IMG/VR virus record: IMGVR_UViG_3300046524_000235
Reading direction: 5' to 3' (one strand)
Origin: a virus
Lineage: Duplodnaviria > Heunggongvirae > Uroviricota > Caudoviricetes
Length of the DNA stretch: 53,476 nt
This document shows positions 46,644 through 52,820 of this stretch, one piece after another. A program made the position numbers and the translations under genes. Numbering within the stretch: position 1 is the stretch's first letter; each line of letters opens with the position of its first letter. Below the pieces are notes generated by a model, which had not been told where the DNA came from, made no database searches, and saw only the letters and a program-made list of their open reading frames with translations.

Positions 46644-47009
46644 CTATACCGTGTATTCTATTGATTCAATTCCTGCCTGTTTGATAGCCATCATGCATAC
46701 GGGACAGGGCTTAGCCAGTCTAAGTTCACCAGCGTTACCTACCCTTACGACTACTATCTTGGCAGGGATTCCATTCTTTACTTTTACTAAAGCAGCTACC
46801 TCAGCATGTAGCCAGTGACGATGACTGTTCCCAGTCTTCTTAGCTAACTCAGCCTGTCGAGGATGAGTCTTCACATATGAGTTAGTTCCAGTGGCTAAAA
46901 TTTTGCCCTTGCGATCAAGCACCGCTGCTGCTATTCGATACCTACCTGTTTCTGGTTGAGCTGAGTCAAGAGCCAACCTTTTAAGTTTTTCTATAAGTCT
47001 ACTACTCAT
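46644..47009 (-). CDS. Zn-dependent cytidine/dCMP deaminase-like protein
   Basis: HAE and PCPVC motifs; TGGTATAAG promoter at 47033-47041. Confidence 0.85.
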   Translation of the reverse strand: MSSRLIEKLKRLALDSAQPETGRYRIAAAVLDRKGKILATGTNSYVKTHPRQAELAKKTGNSHRHWLHAEVAALVKVKNGIPAKIVVVRVGNAGELRLAKPCPVCMMAIKQAGIESIEYTV

Positions 47010-47052
47010 GGTTTACCCTACTGTGCGTCTCCCTTATACCAAGGATTCGCAA

Positions 47053-47611
47053 GAAACTGGACACATGTCCAGAAATGTCCGTTTTCATTGAAACGAGAAA
47101 ACGTATATAGAACAATGAGTTATAGCACTGCTGTCCAATTTGTCCAGAAACTTTTTAGAAAACTGGACAGGCTCTAAGCCTTTGTATATAAGGCTCACAG
47201 CGATTTTGTCCAGTTTTTTTCACTTTTTTCTAAAAACCATACCTCACTTTCTATTAGAAATAAAAAACTAGCAAAAAGGTTACCTCACCCTCTTATATAT
47301 AAATATATTTTTTAAAAGTTCAAATATAAATATATATATAGTACCCCCATATTCCTGGACTGTTAGGGTGAACCCTATGTTGTTACTTTTTTGTTTTTTT
47401 ATTTATCAAATAGAAAGTGAGGTATGGTTTTTGGAAAAAAGGCCAAAAAACTGGACAATCGGGCTCTCAGCCTTATGCAGCAAGGGTTTCAGCTGTCCAG
47501 TTTTTTTTAGAGAAATTGGACAAACTGGACACGCTCCCCGCAAACCCTTTGTTTATAAGGCTCTAAGGTTTTTGGACAAAATGAGATTTCTGGACATGTG
47601 TCCAGTTTTTT
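47053..47611. repeat. Palindromic iteron-rich element with AT core, copy B (inverted relative to 780-1345)
   Basis: Core CTCTTATATATAAATATATTTTTTAAAAGTTCAAATATAAATATATATATAGTACCCCC is the reverse complement of the copy A core; same arms and TGGACA motifs. Confidence 0.9.
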
Positions 47612-47671: not shown

Positions 47672-49303
47672 TTACAGGTTGCCAGCAATGAATTCCGAAA
47701 TGAACCTCGGAGTTGCAGTATCGAAACCAACCACGTCAAGCATATTGCGGTCAGTCGGATCAGCAATGCTGAAGTTGTTCACAGCCATACCAACCGTGAT
47801 CAGCTTAGCTTCAGGCTTGTTCATACCCTGACGATACTTGCGTACCGCTTGGAACACGTGTTGGCCGCCAGACCACGTTTCGTTATCCGTGTAAACACAG
47901 ACAGCGTCAACGTCCCACTTATGTTGAAGCGCATACTCGAACGGCAATGCACAATTCGTACCACCGAAGTTGTGCGCACGAACCTTACCACACGCCGTAG
48001 CCAAAGTATCTTTGGATGTGATCCCGAGATCCTTAAAGCCATTAGCGCCGCTCGTGAAACCACGGATCTCAGTCCACGGCTCTGTGCGAGCGGTGACCAT
48101 AGCCATGATTGCCGTACCTTCAGCACAGCTCAACAGAGGCGTATTGCTGATCGGAGCACTCATTGAACCCGATACATCCAGGCCCAACAGAATGTTCTTA
48201 CCGGACGGCTCTATCGCTTCAAACGAAACATAGAACGCATCTTCCAGATCAGCCACAATGGTACGGGCCGGAGTCCATACGAGTGAACCCTTATCGCCAC
48301 GGCCTTGCGCGTAGATCTTCTGCGCAACTACGATTGACATCGGATGCAGACGTTCCTTGCGGATGGCTTCAACATCGTGGAGCTTGGCAGATACAATCTT
48401 GCTCGTTTCCGAGAAAGGCTTGATCAAACCAACTGCCGTGAGCTTGTTCAGGTTACGAACCAGCGCACCCAGACCCATGTGAGGCACAAGAGCTTCCCAA
48501 ACCTTCGGGTCATTCTTCTGCTCATTCGGAATCATTTCGTGCGTGAGCTTGAAATCCTGGATCAGCTTAATCAATGTCTTCGTATCTGCAGTCTTGGCTT
48601 GCTCTGCAGCAATCAGAAGTTGAGGCACGAGATCGCCTTGCGACAGCGACTCTGCACCCTTGTTGATAAACTTGTACAGGTTCTGACGAACCGGATCGGT
48701 GCCAGGCTTGACGTGAGCCAGACGCATGATGTCCTTGTGGGACCAGCCGTCACGTTGCTTGTACTTTACGATCTGGAACGCAAGCTTATCGGTATCCTTT
48801 GAGGAATACCAGTTCTGAACTACATTCTTGAGCGAACGGCCCCAACCACGCATACCGTTTGCGAATGCAACGAAGTGCATGAAGTGCGTGCCAGTACGAG
48901 CCACGAGATTCAGCTTATCCTTCGCATACAGCTTGGTTGCCACGTCGCCGTGGGTGAAGACCAGAGCCATGACCAGAAGCGCATAGTCATTGTTCTTTGC
49001 ACGGCCAGCTTGGCTGATCTCTACCACACGATCAACCACAACCTTGCCATTTGCCTTGATGAGCTTCACGATCTCATCAGTGTTCTGCTTCGTGATATCC
49101 TTTTCGCTAGCGTAGAACGTACCGCCGCTCGTGCCGATGATAAGGAATCGATCCAGCTTTTGAAGGCCAGAGATCTCAAATACAAAGCCGCCAGCGTTGT
49201 TCTTGACCTGAGCTACCGGAGCGTTGCCAGCCGGGCGATTCTGCGGCGTGGTACGTGCAACAGTACGGGTATTGGTATTCTTTGCGAGGGTATTGAATGA
49301 CAT
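47672..49303 (-). CDS. rsr: Ro60/Rsr TROVE-domain RNA-binding protein with C-terminal vWA domain
   Basis: NNAGGFVF, RFLIIG..GGTFYA, RTGTHF..F, RGWGR, KYKQRDGWSHKD..RL.H, LDVSGSM (MIDAS), YTDNETW, DVVGFD; start ATG 49303 after AAGGAG. Confidence 0.95.
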   Translation of the reverse strand: MSFNTLAKNTNTRTVARTTPQNRPAGNAPVAQVKNNAGGFVFEISGLQKLDRFLIIGTSGGTFYASEKDITKQNTDEIVKLIKANGKVVVDRVVEISQAGRAKNNDYALLVMALVFTHGDVATKLYAKDKLNLVARTGTHFMHFVAFANGMRGWGRSLKNVVQNWYSSKDTDKLAFQIVKYKQRDGWSHKDIMRLAHVKPGTDPVRQNLYKFINKGAESLSQGDLVPQLLIAAEQAKTADTKTLIKLIQDFKLTHEMIPNEQKNDPKVWEALVPHMGLGALVRNLNKLTAVGLIKPFSETSKIVSAKLHDVEAIRKERLHPMSIVVAQKIYAQGRGDKGSLVWTPARTIVADLEDAFYVSFEAIEPSGKNILLGLDVSGSMSAPISNTPLLSCAEGTAIMAMVTARTEPWTEIRGFTSGANGFKDLGITSKDTLATACGKVRAHNFGGTNCALPFEYALQHKWDVDAVCVYTDNETWSGGQHVFQAVRKYRQGMNKPEAKLITVGMAVNNFSIADPTDRNMLDVVGFDTATPRFISEFIAGNL

Positions 49304-49344
49304 TTGAGGCTCCTTAAGTTTAGGGAACAAAGTTTAAATCGACT

Positions 49345-49384
49345 AAAAAAAGAAGGTCTGAATCCAAGATGGAAACAGACCTTC
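49345..49384 (-). terminator. Terminator-like hairpin between ncRNA region and Ro60
   Basis: GAAGGTCTG...CAGACCTTC-T7. Confidence 0.6.
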
Positions 49385-49770
49385 GGGTACTTCTAACTTA
49401 CCACATGTGGTGCTGAACTGGGGACATCTAGGGATCCTGGTTACCAGGGCCCTGGAGATGCTCCTCGTGCTCATCATCTCCGCTCCAGTAGAGGCGTAGC
49501 CGACACTGGGCGGAAAGCTATAACTTAGAGTTACTCTAAGCCAGCAATCTAACAACTGCTTGAGATACGTAAGTCTAGTGGTACTGCGGTCATGACCTGA
49601 CCTCATGCTGGGCTGTAAAGCGACCCAGCGGATCTCCGGCTGTAGTGGAGTAGCGCAAGACGTAGCGCAGCGGAGTCTTGTGGTACGCAACGGAAGCGGG
49701 AAGTTGATACCTACAGAGTTACTCTATAGTCACTTTCCAAACTGCAAAGTTAAATACGAAAGGTCATGAT
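49385..49770. ncRNA. Candidate structured ncRNA of unknown class
   Basis: Dense hairpins in a region with no credible ORF. Confidence 0.35.
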
Positions 49771-49775
49771 GGGGA

Positions 49776-49906
49776 TACGGGCAAAAGGCGTGCTAGAAGA
49801 TTTTACGTGCTCTATCCGCTAAGCTATACAACCCTCAAGGCTGCAGTTGGATTCGAACCAACGCCACGACTTCCGAATAGTGATAATCTAACACTAACGG
49901 CCCGTA
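49776..49906 (-). ncRNA. YrlA-like Y RNA 1; permuted tRNA-Arg(UCG)-like
   Basis: Terminal stem ACGGGCCG/TTTGCCCGT; T arm GTTGGTTCGAATCCAAC, closed acceptor stem, D arm TAGCTTAGCGGATAGAGC; loop ATTCGGA. Confidence 0.8.
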
Positions 49907-49914
49907 AAGAGGAA

Positions 49915-49977
49915 GTGAGCAAATGAAAGTGATCTGGAGGAAATCTTAAAAGGATAATCCAAATCGAAACGGCTCAC
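49915..49977 (-). ncRNA. Minimal Y-RNA-like unit 2 with Lys(UUU) anticodon loop
   Basis: GTGAGCCG/TTTGCTCAC stem; ATC-CTTTTAA-GAT. Confidence 0.7.
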
Positions 49978-49986
49978 AAAATTGAA

Positions 49987-50121
49987 GCTGAACAAAAGGC
50001 GTACTGGAATTTTTAGCGCTCTACCAACTGAGCTATGCGGCAACCCGTAAGGCAACCACAGAAGGACTCGAACCTTCGACCTCTCTATTAACAGTAGATA
50101 AACCAATACAAGCGGTTCAGC
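49987..50121 (-). ncRNA. YrlA-like Y RNA 3; permuted tRNA-Asn(GUU)-like
   Basis: GCTGAACCG/TTTGTTCAGC stem; TCTA-CTGTTAA-TAGA; T arm GAAGGTTCGAGTCCTTC; D arm TAGCTCAGTTGGTAGAGC. Confidence 0.8.
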
Positions 50122-50131
50122 GAAACTGAGA

Positions 50132-50303
50132 AAACGAACAAATGTTTGCCAAGGGAGATACTGGATTCACCAGCTTAGCTTTAGCTCAAGCAGAGTACAA
50201 CAATGTTAACCCTCTTGAAGTATCTCTCGTTTCCGAGTACTGCTGATACGACTGTCGTTTAACTTTCCGATAGTAGATAACCCTTAATGCGTTCGGTTCG
50301 TTT
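50132..50303 (-). ncRNA. Y-RNA-like unit 4 with non-tRNA multibranch insert
   Basis: AAACGAACCG/TTTGTTCGTTT stem, GGGTTATC motif, ACT-ATCGGAA-AGT, GAGATACT/AGTATCTC stem. Confidence 0.65.
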
Positions 50304-50313
50304 GAAAATTGAT

Positions 50314-50376
50314 ACGGGCAAAGAAATGAAACTAGGGGAATCAGTAAGAGGGATAACCTAGCATCGAACGGCCCGT
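50314..50376 (-). ncRNA. Minimal Y-RNA-like unit 5
   Basis: ACGGGCCG/TTTGCCCGT stem; GGTTATC; loop containing CTCTTAC. Confidence 0.65.
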
Positions 50377-50385
50377 GAAATGGGA

Positions 50386-50517
50386 ATGGACAAGTAATCG
50401 AATGGATCTGGAATCGCTGTGTTTACCAATTTCACCAACCCCGCAACTGCAGCGGAGTACAGGACTCGAACCTGTAATTTGCGATTTGGGTTTAGATAAA
50501 CCATTCTATCGGTCCAT
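50386..50517 (-). ncRNA. YrlA-like Y RNA 6 (Leu-type D arm)
   Basis: ATGGACCG/CTTGTCCAT stem; T arm ACAGGTTCGAGTCCTGT; closed acceptor ACTCCGC/GCGGGGT; D arm TGGTGAAATTGGTAAACAC. Confidence 0.78.
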
Positions 50518-50571
50518 GAACTTTAATTCAGGCACTGACTCTTTAGAATCAATGCGAGGATTAAAGCGAGG

Positions 50572-50636
50572 GTGAGCAAAAAGAATAATGCTGGGGAGTA
50601 ATCACCAATTGATAACCCAACATAAGAACGGCTCAC
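50572..50636 (-). ncRNA. Minimal Y-RNA-like unit 7
   Basis: GTGAGCCG/TTTGCTCAC stem, GGGTTATC; begins ~8 nt after a -10 box. Confidence 0.65.
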
Positions 50637-50644
50637 TAAGGTTA

Positions 50645-50672
50645 TTATACCATTACTTCTTAAATTATTGAA
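50645..50672 (-). promoter_or_regulatory. Bipartite promoter driving the Y-RNA array
   Basis: TTCAATAATTTA-N8-TGGTATAAT. Confidence 0.75.
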
Positions 50673-50725
50673 AGCGAATTTTGAACTGGAAGATTTTTTG
50701 GCAGATAATCCAATTCGACGGCTCT
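50671..50725 (-). ncRNA. Minimal Y-RNA-like unit 8 with Gly(GCC)-like loop
   Basis: AGAGCCG...GCTTT stem, GAATTGGA/TCCAGTTC stem, GGATTATC, loop CTGCCAA. Confidence 0.55.
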
Positions 50726-50734
50726 CGAAACTTT

Positions 50735-51480
50735 TACAACTATAAGCTTGAACACATTCTGTGCAGAACCTACGACGGTCTCTTCCAACCAGGGGTGCCT
50801 GGCCAAGAGGACGACGTCGTACCACAGCTCCAGAATTAGCTTTACCTAGCTACAAGCTAGGTAGAGTCTTTGCTTTGCCTTTCGGAAAAGCAACGTAGAG
50901 CACTGTTGCAGATACTCTCTGGCTTCCAACTTAACCCTTTCCCTAAAGAACGGATATCGCTATTGAACCAGTTTGATACTTCAAACTCTGTGCGACCCGA
51001 AGGTCGTTGTTCATGATGAACTCATGCGGTGCTTGATGTCCATCACCTGCAGCTCATAACTTATAGTTAACTATATTAGATGAGCTGTTCTCGAACCCAG
51101 AGCATCTCGGTCCCTGGGTTTCGCTGCAGGCGAAGACAACTTTCGAAGAATGTTACATACTTCTAGTAACGTTGTCGTTACTTCTATACTTCATCATGCC
51201 CCCAAAAGGGGTTCAAAAAGCAATTCTGTAGGATAACCCCAGGTTGCTCAATCAAGGGAAGGAGAAAATGTCCTACTCACCATGCACAGCTATTACGTCA
51301 ACATCGAGAGTCTATCACGAGTATTGTCAGTAAGCCAACAACGTGGAAACTCTAGTGATGTGATTTCGGGATTGTCCTTAGTCGCCAGGTATTTACCCTG
51401 AGTATCTTCGATCAGAGCAAAGCCTTCTTCGTACTCTACAACGCTAATGATTTCATTAAACATTTTGAATCGCCCTCTGT
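50735..51480 (-). ncRNA. Candidate large structured ncRNA (~750 nt)
   Basis: No credible ORF; many hairpins, including a minus-strand cUUCGg stem (ACGACC-TTCG-GGTCGC). Confidence 0.4.
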
Positions 51481-51902: not shown

Positions 51903-51931
51903 CTTATACCAACAAGTACTAAATTATTGAA
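51903..51931 (-). promoter_or_regulatory. Bipartite promoter
   Basis: TTCAATAATTTA-N8-TGGTATAAG. Confidence 0.75.
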
Positions 51932-52144
51932 TTAAGAGAAGGGTAAACCTCTGTTCTCTCGCCTCTCATAATACTCTTTCAATCGCTGCTGTTCCTGTCT
52001 ATTATACTCAGCGATTTCACTAGTGACTTGAGAACGTCCTTCCTTAATTCCTCGTAAGTACTCTGACCTTCCGTACTCAGCGATTTCTTCTTCACTCATA
52101 CTTCTCTTTTTCAGTCCAGAGAATACGTCCTTGATATTCCTCAC
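51932..52144 (-). CDS. Small hypothetical protein (start probably ATG 52099)
   Basis: Charged helical ORF overlapping the HAD gene end. Confidence 0.5.
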   Translation of the reverse strand: MRNIKDVFSGLKKRSMSEEEIAEYGRSEYLRGIKEGRSQVTSEIAEYNRQEQQRLKEYYERRENRGLPFS

Positions 52145-52820
52145 CGTGAATCAAATGATTCAATTCAAAGTCTTTGCCAGTGAGTGCTGCCCCGCAGAGC
52201 AGAGTGTCATCAAGACTCAAGCCTTCACGCCCATCAGTCAATACAACGTCTTTCATTTGCTGTGGGAGAAAGTCATTGATGTCATCTAGAATTACGTATG
52301 ACTCGACTGTAACAGGTACTTTAGATAGACTCTGAATAAGTCTTCCATTCTGTACGAAAAAGTCTGGACCTGTGTAGTAACGTTTTTCTTTAATGCCTTG
52401 AAGGAAATCAAATATCTGTTCTCCACGATTCCCACGAAACTCAGGGGTCTTGCCTATAACACGAGTAGGATCAATACCCATAGCGCCAAGCACCAACCTA
52501 AGACTGTAGATGTCAACGCCTTCTCTCCACGTAGATGAGACAACGATATGAGCATTGGTAGCAACGAGGAGCTTGTTAAGCAGTCCAACTGCGTACTTAT
52601 CAATGCCTTCCGGATACTTCACATACGGAGCTTTAACAACTTTAGCCCTTGGACCTCCGAAGTAGCCCATATCAGCTTCATGGTCCACCTCAAGGTTAGG
52701 CCATGCCCCTGCAAGAATGAAAGTCTTGTCAGAGTTCAAAACTCCGTCGATATCCAAAAACACAAGACGTGTTTTGGATGTGTCAAGCGTAGGTGCTTCG
52801 TCTTTAAGGGCAACGTCCAT
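52092..52820 (-). CDS. HAD phosphatase of the Swiss-Army-Knife RNA-repair type
   Basis: FLDIDGVLN, IVVSSTWR, RGEQI, YVILDD. Confidence 0.8.
   Translation of the reverse strand: MDVALKDEAPTLDTSKTRLVFLDIDGVLNSDKTFILAGAWPNLEVDHEADMGYFGGPRAKVVKAPYVKYPEGIDKYAVGLLNKLLVATNAHIVVSSTWREGVDIYSLRLVLGAMGIDPTRVIGKTPEFRGNRGEQIFDFLQGIKEKRYYTGPDFFVQNGRLIQSLSKVPVTVESYVILDDINDFLPQQMKDVVLTDGREGLSLDDTLLCGAALTGKDFELNHLIHGEEYQGRILWTEKEKYE

Follow-up and report, generated by a model that had tools for sequence, protein, structure and literature searches.

Predicted tandem Y RNA genes beside a phage Ro60 gene, with anticodon-bearing members as possible bait for tRNA-attacking enzymes

YrlA RNAs (RF02553) are the closest described relatives of the array analysed here. 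Chen 2014 (PMC4201824) defines YrlA, labels one of its hairpins V, leaves that hairpin unpaired in the seed structure, and reports up to three YrlA per phage. Wang 2018 (bioRxiv 10.1101/312249) says that YrlA lacks an anticodon loop, likens its long loops to class II variable arms, and points out the likeness of YrlA to permuted tRNAs. With YrlA the array shares its location, on the Ro60 strand and no more than 2 kb away from that gene, an RCCG closing stem and the YUAY motif, together with a T arm before the D arm and a closed acceptor. It differs in having eight units rather than one to three, in keeping both strands of the Ro60 helix, and in the hairpin after YUAY, which both papers name the variable arm and which we read here as an anticodon arm.

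Shorter hairpin Y RNAs adjoining Ro60, some of them phage-encoded, have been described as YrlB/Yrn2 and as Yrl1/Yrl2 of Thermus phage phiLo (PMC4201824; PMC12135203). As we do below for the array, others have proposed that such RNAs act on the host's defence machinery and on its degradation of RNA. The loops described there are pyrimidine-rich or plain, whereas the minimal units here have anticodon-like or D-loop-like heads, and the word 'anticodon' does not occur in the phiLo paper (PMC12135203). Replacement phage tRNAs, such as those of T5 against PARIS (PMC12409363; PMC10264068), would share with the array both the conflict and the top anticodons, Lys-UUU, Thr-UGU and Asn-GUU. Those tRNAs decode and are mutated to escape cleavage, whereas the array units, as predicted, cannot decode and tend to keep U36-A37-A38-U39. 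The permuted tRNA genes of red algae and archaea, cited by Wang 2018, also place the 3' part first and have an acceptor initially closed by a loop; they are matured by splicing enzymes, whereas in the array the ends are closed by a Ro60 handle and the identity elements do not match the anticodon.

One sentence of Hughes 2020 suggests YrlA as a competitive inhibitor of an anticodon nuclease, for a loop-less YrlA, and a report on a Listeria phage describes abundant RNAs beside an Rsr-like gene. Neither 'decoy' nor 'Y RNA' occurs in the text of van den Berg 2023 (PMC10264068), and a 2026 preprint on tRNA mimics covers other families in the part available. We found no description of anticodon arms in Y RNAs or of multi-anticodon arrays in the literature searched, which was covered for the most part at the level of search listings.

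Eight units on a shared handle

The window is a stretch of 53,476 nucleotides from a virus record that is complete at 181,435 bases, with direct terminal repeats. The complete record carries terminase and tail genes (a PHROGs search gave generic structural matches only) and about two dozen ordinary tRNA genes, all outside the window. Most of the stretch was found in 19 DNA runs, 18 labelled rhizosphere and one soil, and five of these runs may be where it came from. The features of the locus are as follows.

47672..49303, minus strand: ro60/Rsr, 543 aa, with Pfam TROVE (E 4e-35) and vWA_Ro60 (E 5e-54) domains
49339..49775, minus strand: leader, conserved and non-coding, between the array and ro60
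49776..49906, minus strand: U8, predicted circularly permuted tRNA-Arg(UCG) on a Ro60-type handle, without CCA; the loop is at 49872-49878, the T arm at 49846-49862, the closed acceptor (7 bp) at 49827-49845 and the D arm at 49809-49826
49915..49977, minus strand: U7, 63-nt minimal unit with a bare Lys-UUU loop at 49946-49952
49987..50121, minus strand: U6, a Ro60-type handle carrying a predicted tRNA-Asn(GUU) in circularly permuted order; the anticodon arm is at 50083-50097, the T arm at 50061-50077, the closed acceptor at 50036-50060, the D arm at 50018-50035 and positions 26-28 at 50015-50017
50134..50301, minus strand: U5, 168 nt, whose head of several covarying hairpins does not have the shape of a tRNA; weak Pro-CGG loop at 50265-50271
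50314..50376, minus strand: U4, 63-nt minimal unit; Lys-CUU-like loop at 50344-50350, moderate
50386..50517, minus strand: U3, 132-nt unit laid out as a classical YrlA; the T arm is at 50459-50475 and the D arm at 50419-50437, with a closed acceptor between them
50572..50636, minus strand: U2, minimal unit of 65 nt whose head, AAUUGGU, is D-loop-like; no anticodon loop
50645..50672, minus strand: promoter-like site with an extended -10, between U1 and U2
50670..50726, minus strand: U1, 57-nt minimal Y-RNA-like unit; possible Gly-GCC loop at 50698-50704, moderate to weak

The Ro60 product matched D. radiodurans Rsr at E 6e-111 and, among PDB structures, Rsr (2nvo) and vertebrate Ro60, which bears out the earlier identification of the gene. 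No Ro60 more than 45% identical to it was found among cultured phages. Upstream of this gene, at 49776-50726 on the minus strand, lie the eight RCCG..TTATC units that a preliminary description of this DNA had reported; 1000 dinucleotide shuffles gave a mean of 0.07 and a maximum of 2. Each unit is closed by a 6-bp stem; when every 5' strand is matched with the 3' end of its own unit, 47 of 48 pairs are Watson-Crick (3.4 of 6 when paired across units), and a bulged C directly follows the stem in each unit. Of the GNCG(AA) motif by which YrlA contacts Ro60, RCCG is present in all eight units and the subsequent AA in U5 only. About 470 nt separate the array from ro60 on the same strand, inside the 4 kb from a Ro60/TROVE gene expected of YrlA. 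We interpret the units as eight predicted YrlA/YrlB-type Y RNA genes in a tandem array, in which the conserved closing stem is likely to be a Ro60-binding handle carrying interchangeable tRNA parts.

The permuted order of T arm, closed acceptor and D arm was present in U3, U6 and U8 and absent from U1, U2, U4, U5 and U7. The short hairpin, Ro60 helix and small apical loop of the YrlB/Yrn2 type were found in U1, U2, U4 and U7 (57-65 nt). Unit lengths from U1 to U8 are 57, 65, 132, 63, 168, 135, 63 and 131 nt, so that the alternation of long and short units previously noted is only a loose one. A search with the YrlA model, which the preliminary description had proposed, matched U6 at 39.8 bits (E 9e-7) and U8 partially at 22.3 bits (E 0.11), both under the 69-bit cut-off of RF02553. 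The published YrlA of phage Ava3 itself scores 36.1 bits against this model; that is, the cut-off misses accepted members. Rfam at its gathering threshold and ARAGORN gave no match in the window as it stands. Single-unit MFE z-scores were modest, from -0.4 to -3.4 with the ends of U5-U7 slightly misplaced, and we gave them no weight as support.

Relatives L001-L004 and L009, whose Ro60 proteins are 73-93% identical to that of the window, keep the array with gains and losses, and L019 does so more loosely. Four further DNA runs held no loop variants. One 217-nt contig from an RNA run (X20), possibly derived from DNA, falls at 49558-49774, in the leader and outside the units.

U6 and U8 run in the order handle, positions 29-43, variable loop, T arm, loop-closed acceptor, D arm, positions 26-28, handle. 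When they were reordered in silico, ARAGORN called tRNA-Asn(gtt) and tRNA-Arg(tcg), each a complete cloverleaf. By these predicted folds, each of the two units is a whole tRNA whose chain has been opened between positions 28 and 29, which the preliminary description had missed, as it had the identity of their loop with the V arm of the published papers and the spread of this design through bacteria and phages. The statement of Wang 2018 that YrlA has no anticodon loop does not hold for U6 and U8, and U3 has the loop-less form. U8 carries UCG in the window and UGG on a near-identical body in L001; Arg-UCG is missing from the phage's ordinary tRNA list. In L003 (4139-4567) and L009 (3139-3567) a 143-aa ORF, possibly a mobile endonuclease, is inserted in the U8 equivalent and destroys it.

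U7 has the firmest loop among the minimal units: closed by three pairs, it is invariant in the window, L001, L003, L004 and L009, and is Arg-UCU in L019. The closing pair of the U4 loop is a C-U mismatch, and the loop reads CAA in one strain contig (run X17, depth 4), where the unit also differs at several further sites. U33 of the U1 loop is retained in two of the four phages compared, being lost in L001 and L009, and the MFE fold has no hairpin at the Gly loop. In U5, double-sided changes occur in 14 of 38 predicted pairs (5 sequences), but the Pro loop itself is not conserved: orthologous loops have 5-7 nt and the region is unpaired in the consensus. Its 120-nt head, for which no tRNA or Rfam match was found, appears to be a separate RNA module on the common handle; no conserved ribozyme or sarcin-ricin motif was seen there by eye against the consensus sequences of such motifs. 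The U2 head, which by our reading resembles a D loop, is identical in L001, L004, L009 and L019. In U3 the anticodon stem is retained but leads into the handle where the loop would be. All five phages compared conserve a CCAA remnant on the 3' strand at this point and UCC on the D-side strand, and the unit might resemble a tRNA that has been nicked in its anticodon loop.

All six loops named in the preliminary description are where it placed them, and its claim of anticodon loops in most units stands firmly for U6, U7 and U8 and moderately for U1 and U4; the loop is weak in U5 and absent from U2 and U3. With a D-loop-like U2 and a U3 lacking the loop, display is limited to at most five or six of the eight units, and the proposed multi-anticodon library is narrowed accordingly, three of the eight not fitting it.

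Anticodon rules across the family

We scanned viral contigs (120 of about 240 stretches) and GTDB genomes (123 of about 790) with a pattern that fixed GGTTAYC, the T loop and the start of the D arm and left every loop letter free. This gave at least 253 distinct long units. The same type of RNA is present in bacterial chromosomes, with at least 85 units. Of 174 loci whose flanks were long enough, 146 contained Ro60, which lay on the strand of the units in every match listed.

Loop statistics were taken from the 184 units with canonical spacing, the other 69 being dropped. Counted back from the T arm, these listed units had C32 in 70%, U33 in 80%, a purine at 37 in 88% and A38 in 84%. U33 and R37 occurred together in 142 of 184, against 6-70 in shifted frames. 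At least 39 distinct anticodons were seen among the matches listed, and A34 was rare (10 of 142 listed units), as in real tRNAs. Pairs spanning the break were formed at 27-43 in 151 and at 28-42 in 157 of 179 listed units (shuffle means 88 and 70). The signal persisted after clustering of the listed matches into 96-142 groups; at 70% identity, U33 was kept in 72 and R37 in 85 of 96 clusters.

A second parse of all loci, in which 204 of 277 listed units had at least four of five stem pairs, coupled position 37 to position 36: among the listed cases, G36 was followed by G37 in 39 of 53, and U36 by A37 in 101 of 106. This is the pattern of m1G37 and t6A37 tRNAs. The context at 32, 37 and 38 also matched that of tRNAs with the same anticodon (0.419, against 0.345 and a maximum of 0.387 in 2000 shuffles; 132 of 142 listed units).

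Among the matches listed, 368 handle units lay on the Ro60 strand of 333 loci, 113 of these 368 being short, and nine lay on the other strand. A closed Y-U-NNN-R-M loop was found in 29 of the 113 listed short units, against 2.5 on average and at most 9 in shuffles. Of the window's short units this parse recovered only U2, with a doubtful loop, so it supports the family and not the individual loops of the window. The loop itself appears to be selected, since it is kept in minimal units that have no T or D arm.

From these sequences it is well supported that the 'variable arm' hairpin of YrlA is an anticodon arm, its stem completed by positions 27-28 after the D arm, and equally that the V arm is a retargetable anticodon arm. 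The preliminary description had proposed, as a test, to see if homologous loops keep U33 and R37 and let the triplet vary among real anticodons; the family behaves in this way, and its minimal units show the same loops.

The published record contains such loops. By eye, four of the 11 rows of the Chen 2014 seed have them (M. smegmatis Arg-UCU, Gordonia Met-CAU, Streptosporangium Arg-UCU and ET08 Ser-UGA), and the Salmonella and Pseudomonas rows do not. The published YrlA of M. smegmatis and of mycobacteriophages carry anticodon loops that went unrecognised. Cultured actinophages have short-long-short arrays with anticodon loops before ro60, in unannotated or mis-annotated DNA, and offer convenient models for experiments. 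Bxz1 and ET08, both cluster C1 phages, have a three-unit array of the same design. One of the actinophage arrays is listed here.

1568-1930 of Mycobacterium phage Ava3 (L447): short-long-short array; also present in L450 and L462

Rapid anticodon change and possible functions

The anticodon changes quickly on an otherwise stable body. We compared 20 close pairs, independent of one another and picked by their identity in the sequence other than loop and acceptor. Positions 34 and 35 differed 10 and 9 times (19/40), and positions 33 and 37 zero times and once (1/40). Acceptor-loop sites, which are not neutral sites, differed in 22/96 cases (p 0.007). Among ten cluster C1 mycobacteriophages, Ava3 and nine picked since published E-values or identity suggested variants, 14 columns varied in 389 nt; the only one with three alleles was anticodon position 36 (UGC, UGA and UGU), and the third unit also varies at 34. 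The arm with its changeable anticodon is present also in the YrlA of M. smegmatis, which has been verified by experiment, and in cultured mycobacteriophages. The change is not universal: U7 is invariant across relatives, and of 209 mycobacteriophage records, 179 have an identity of 99% or more in the unit. No two anticodons within a locus were equal in 27 pairs, which is not beyond chance (1.1 expected).

The commonest anticodons were GUU, UGU and UUU, in 41 of 179 listed units compared with 58 of 764 real tRNAs in the loci, a baseline that is phage-heavy and may include a few miscalls, the samples sharing ancestry. By source, they made up 26 of 83 viral and 11 of 85 genomic units among the matches listed. 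These three are the AriB targets given in PMC12409363. The site U36-A37-A38-U39 occurred in 55 of 179 listed units and 41 of 764 tRNAs, the samples not being independent.

We propose that the locus is a Y RNA array with a Ro60 handle whose anticodon-bearing members serve as bait for tRNA-attacking enzymes, a reading to which we give a probability of about 0.5. The array would be transcribed and processed into single RNAs, which the phage Ro60 would bind and stabilise, and the displayed loops would become modified. The anticodon-bearing units would then be stable, non-decoding bait that occupies host enzymes cutting tRNA anticodon arms and competes with tRNAs for anticodon nucleases, the long units offering elbow and anticodon arm and the short units the loop alone. 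Loops that obey anticodon rules while the anticodon changes quickly make such bait likely; a loop that is kept alone, resembles that of its cognate tRNA, bears no relation to charging and changes rapidly at 34-35 accords with bait for enzymes recognising the anticodon arm. The same-strand Ro60 linkage, the covariation of the handle and the lead of AriB-target anticodons point the same way, and the Ro60-like protein of phage Bas63 is reported to counter the ppl defence. Against bait, the authors of the Bas63 study propose a DNA-degrading target for ppl, not tRNA, and AriB, according to PMC12409363, needs D-loop contacts and U39; the contacts are missing in the minimal units and U39 in U7. Three of the eight units have no convincing loop, and in bacterial chromosomes counter-defence is not an obvious use. 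If the bait reading is true, the phage would counter host defence by means of RNA, in a way that differs from both repair ligases and the supply of replacement tRNAs.

The perfect cloverleafs of reordered U6 and U8 raise the prospect that the long units are permuted tRNA genes, processed as in red algae into decoding tRNAs by an RNase P cut, CCA addition, excision of the handle and ligation at 28/29. M. smegmatis YrlA is cut by RNase P and gains CCA (Chen 2014, PMC4201824), CCA is enriched at 74-76 (22 of 120 listed units), and the UCG of U8 has no ordinary counterpart in this phage. Yet CCA is missing in 158 of 179 listed units and the acceptor is too short in 28, A20 is present in only 1 of 17 listed Arg-anticodon units, one U8 body bears UCG here and UGG in L001, and minimal units are unable to decode. 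The units thus lack both the acceptor identity that follows the anticodon in a functional tRNA and CCA or a route to it. Uncoupled from acceptor identity, the anticodons are unlikely to be decoded, and searches of the complete genome for RtcB, Rnl2 and a CCA-adding enzyme found none of them (for Rnl1 the search was run without a positive control); we regard this route as scarcely credible. The same searches weaken the idea of guides for tRNA repair put forward in the preliminary description, for which we found no support. That the loops are leftovers of ancestral tRNAs, on RNAs acting only as generic tethers or gates while the anticodon drifts neutrally, seems very improbable. A tRNA origin of Y RNAs is proposed in Wang 2018 (bioRxiv 10.1101/312249), Salmonella and Pseudomonas YrlA have no loop, several window loops are degenerate, and a U-turn could persist for stability alone; but bare loops survive in minimal units that have lost all other tRNA parts, and position 37 tracks 36, loop context matches cognate tRNAs and A34 is rare (10 of 142 listed units).

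Two further readings are an adaptor and a tripwire. As an adaptor, the anticodon arm would dock tRNA-reading proteins (synthetases, modification enzymes, ligases, ribosome-associated factors or PNPase) onto Ro60 and so build varied RNA-processing machines. Y RNAs are established tethers (Chen 2014, PMC4201824), the phiLo Ro60-Yrl complex binds and damps host PNPase (PMC12135203), and the modular heads include the non-anticodon types U2, U3 and U5. The coupling of 36 and 37 would also suit substrates of modification enzymes. A fixed partner would favour a fixed anticodon, yet 34 and 35 change quickly on a constant body, and we consider the adaptor unlikely. As a tripwire, cleavage of the loop would open the Y RNA gate on Ro60, or give cyclic-phosphate ends that switch on repair, so that the array would sense which tRNA is attacked. 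This would account for the bacterial copies and the varied loop set; Wang 2018 (bioRxiv 10.1101/312249) and Hughes 2020 report, respectively, that Y RNA gates Rsr activity and that tRNA halves with a 2',3'-cyclic phosphate activate RtcR and the rsr-yrl-rtc operon. The phage genome, however, yielded neither RtcB nor an RNA ligase in the searches described above, and the loop-less Salmonella YrlA was not cut in Hughes 2020. We judge the tripwire decidedly improbable.

The bait reading can be widened, tentatively and at somewhat short of even odds. Ro60 and its Y RNA array may be a widespread retargetable anti-tRNase device, used by phages against host immunity and by bacteria against toxins. Every RNA would display a single anticodon arm that, protected by Ro60, works as decoy or tripwire, and replacing one or two of the anticodon bases would be enough to turn it against a different nuclease. 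If so, the long-sought effector of YrlA would be tRNA-attacking enzymes.

Promoter, leader and neighbouring sequences

The phage promoter placed at 50645-50672 by the preliminary description is in part upheld: the extended -10 is perfect and is conserved in L001, L003, L004, L009 and L019, but the site scores below the threshold of a sigma-70 scan and does not stand ahead of the whole array. A 79% copy lies at 51904-51931. The leader contains two palindromic AGAGTNACTCT boxes (49527-49537 and 49715-49725) that the rest of the genome does not have. It also holds another two conserved 11-12-mers and, immediately before the ribosome-binding site, a hairpin with a tail of U. It could, from these elements, be an operator, an attenuator or a source of further small RNAs.

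The locus is flanked by a HAD_SAK_2 protein (52095-52820, minus strand) and a deaminase-fold protein (46647-47009, minus strand). HAD_SAK_2 is the HAD domain of RNA-repair proteins, and the two are possible partners in RNA end-healing or editing. Upstream of U1, at 50780-51300 on the minus strand, there is further hairpin-rich non-coding DNA, partly conserved in L001 and L002 and without an Rfam match. Directly downstream of ro60, 47051-47611 holds long imperfect inverted repeats and AT-rich runs, which we read as an origin-like or terminus-like region.

Elsewhere in the complete record, a tRNA at 147295-147370 (minus strand) has a CUA (amber) anticodon and may be a suppressor tRNA; TAG ends only 4 of 92 long ORFs. 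Within 134516-155520, several ordinary tRNAs (Lys, Ile, Val, Phe and Thr) have altered T loops, as might be expected of nuclease-evading tRNAs.
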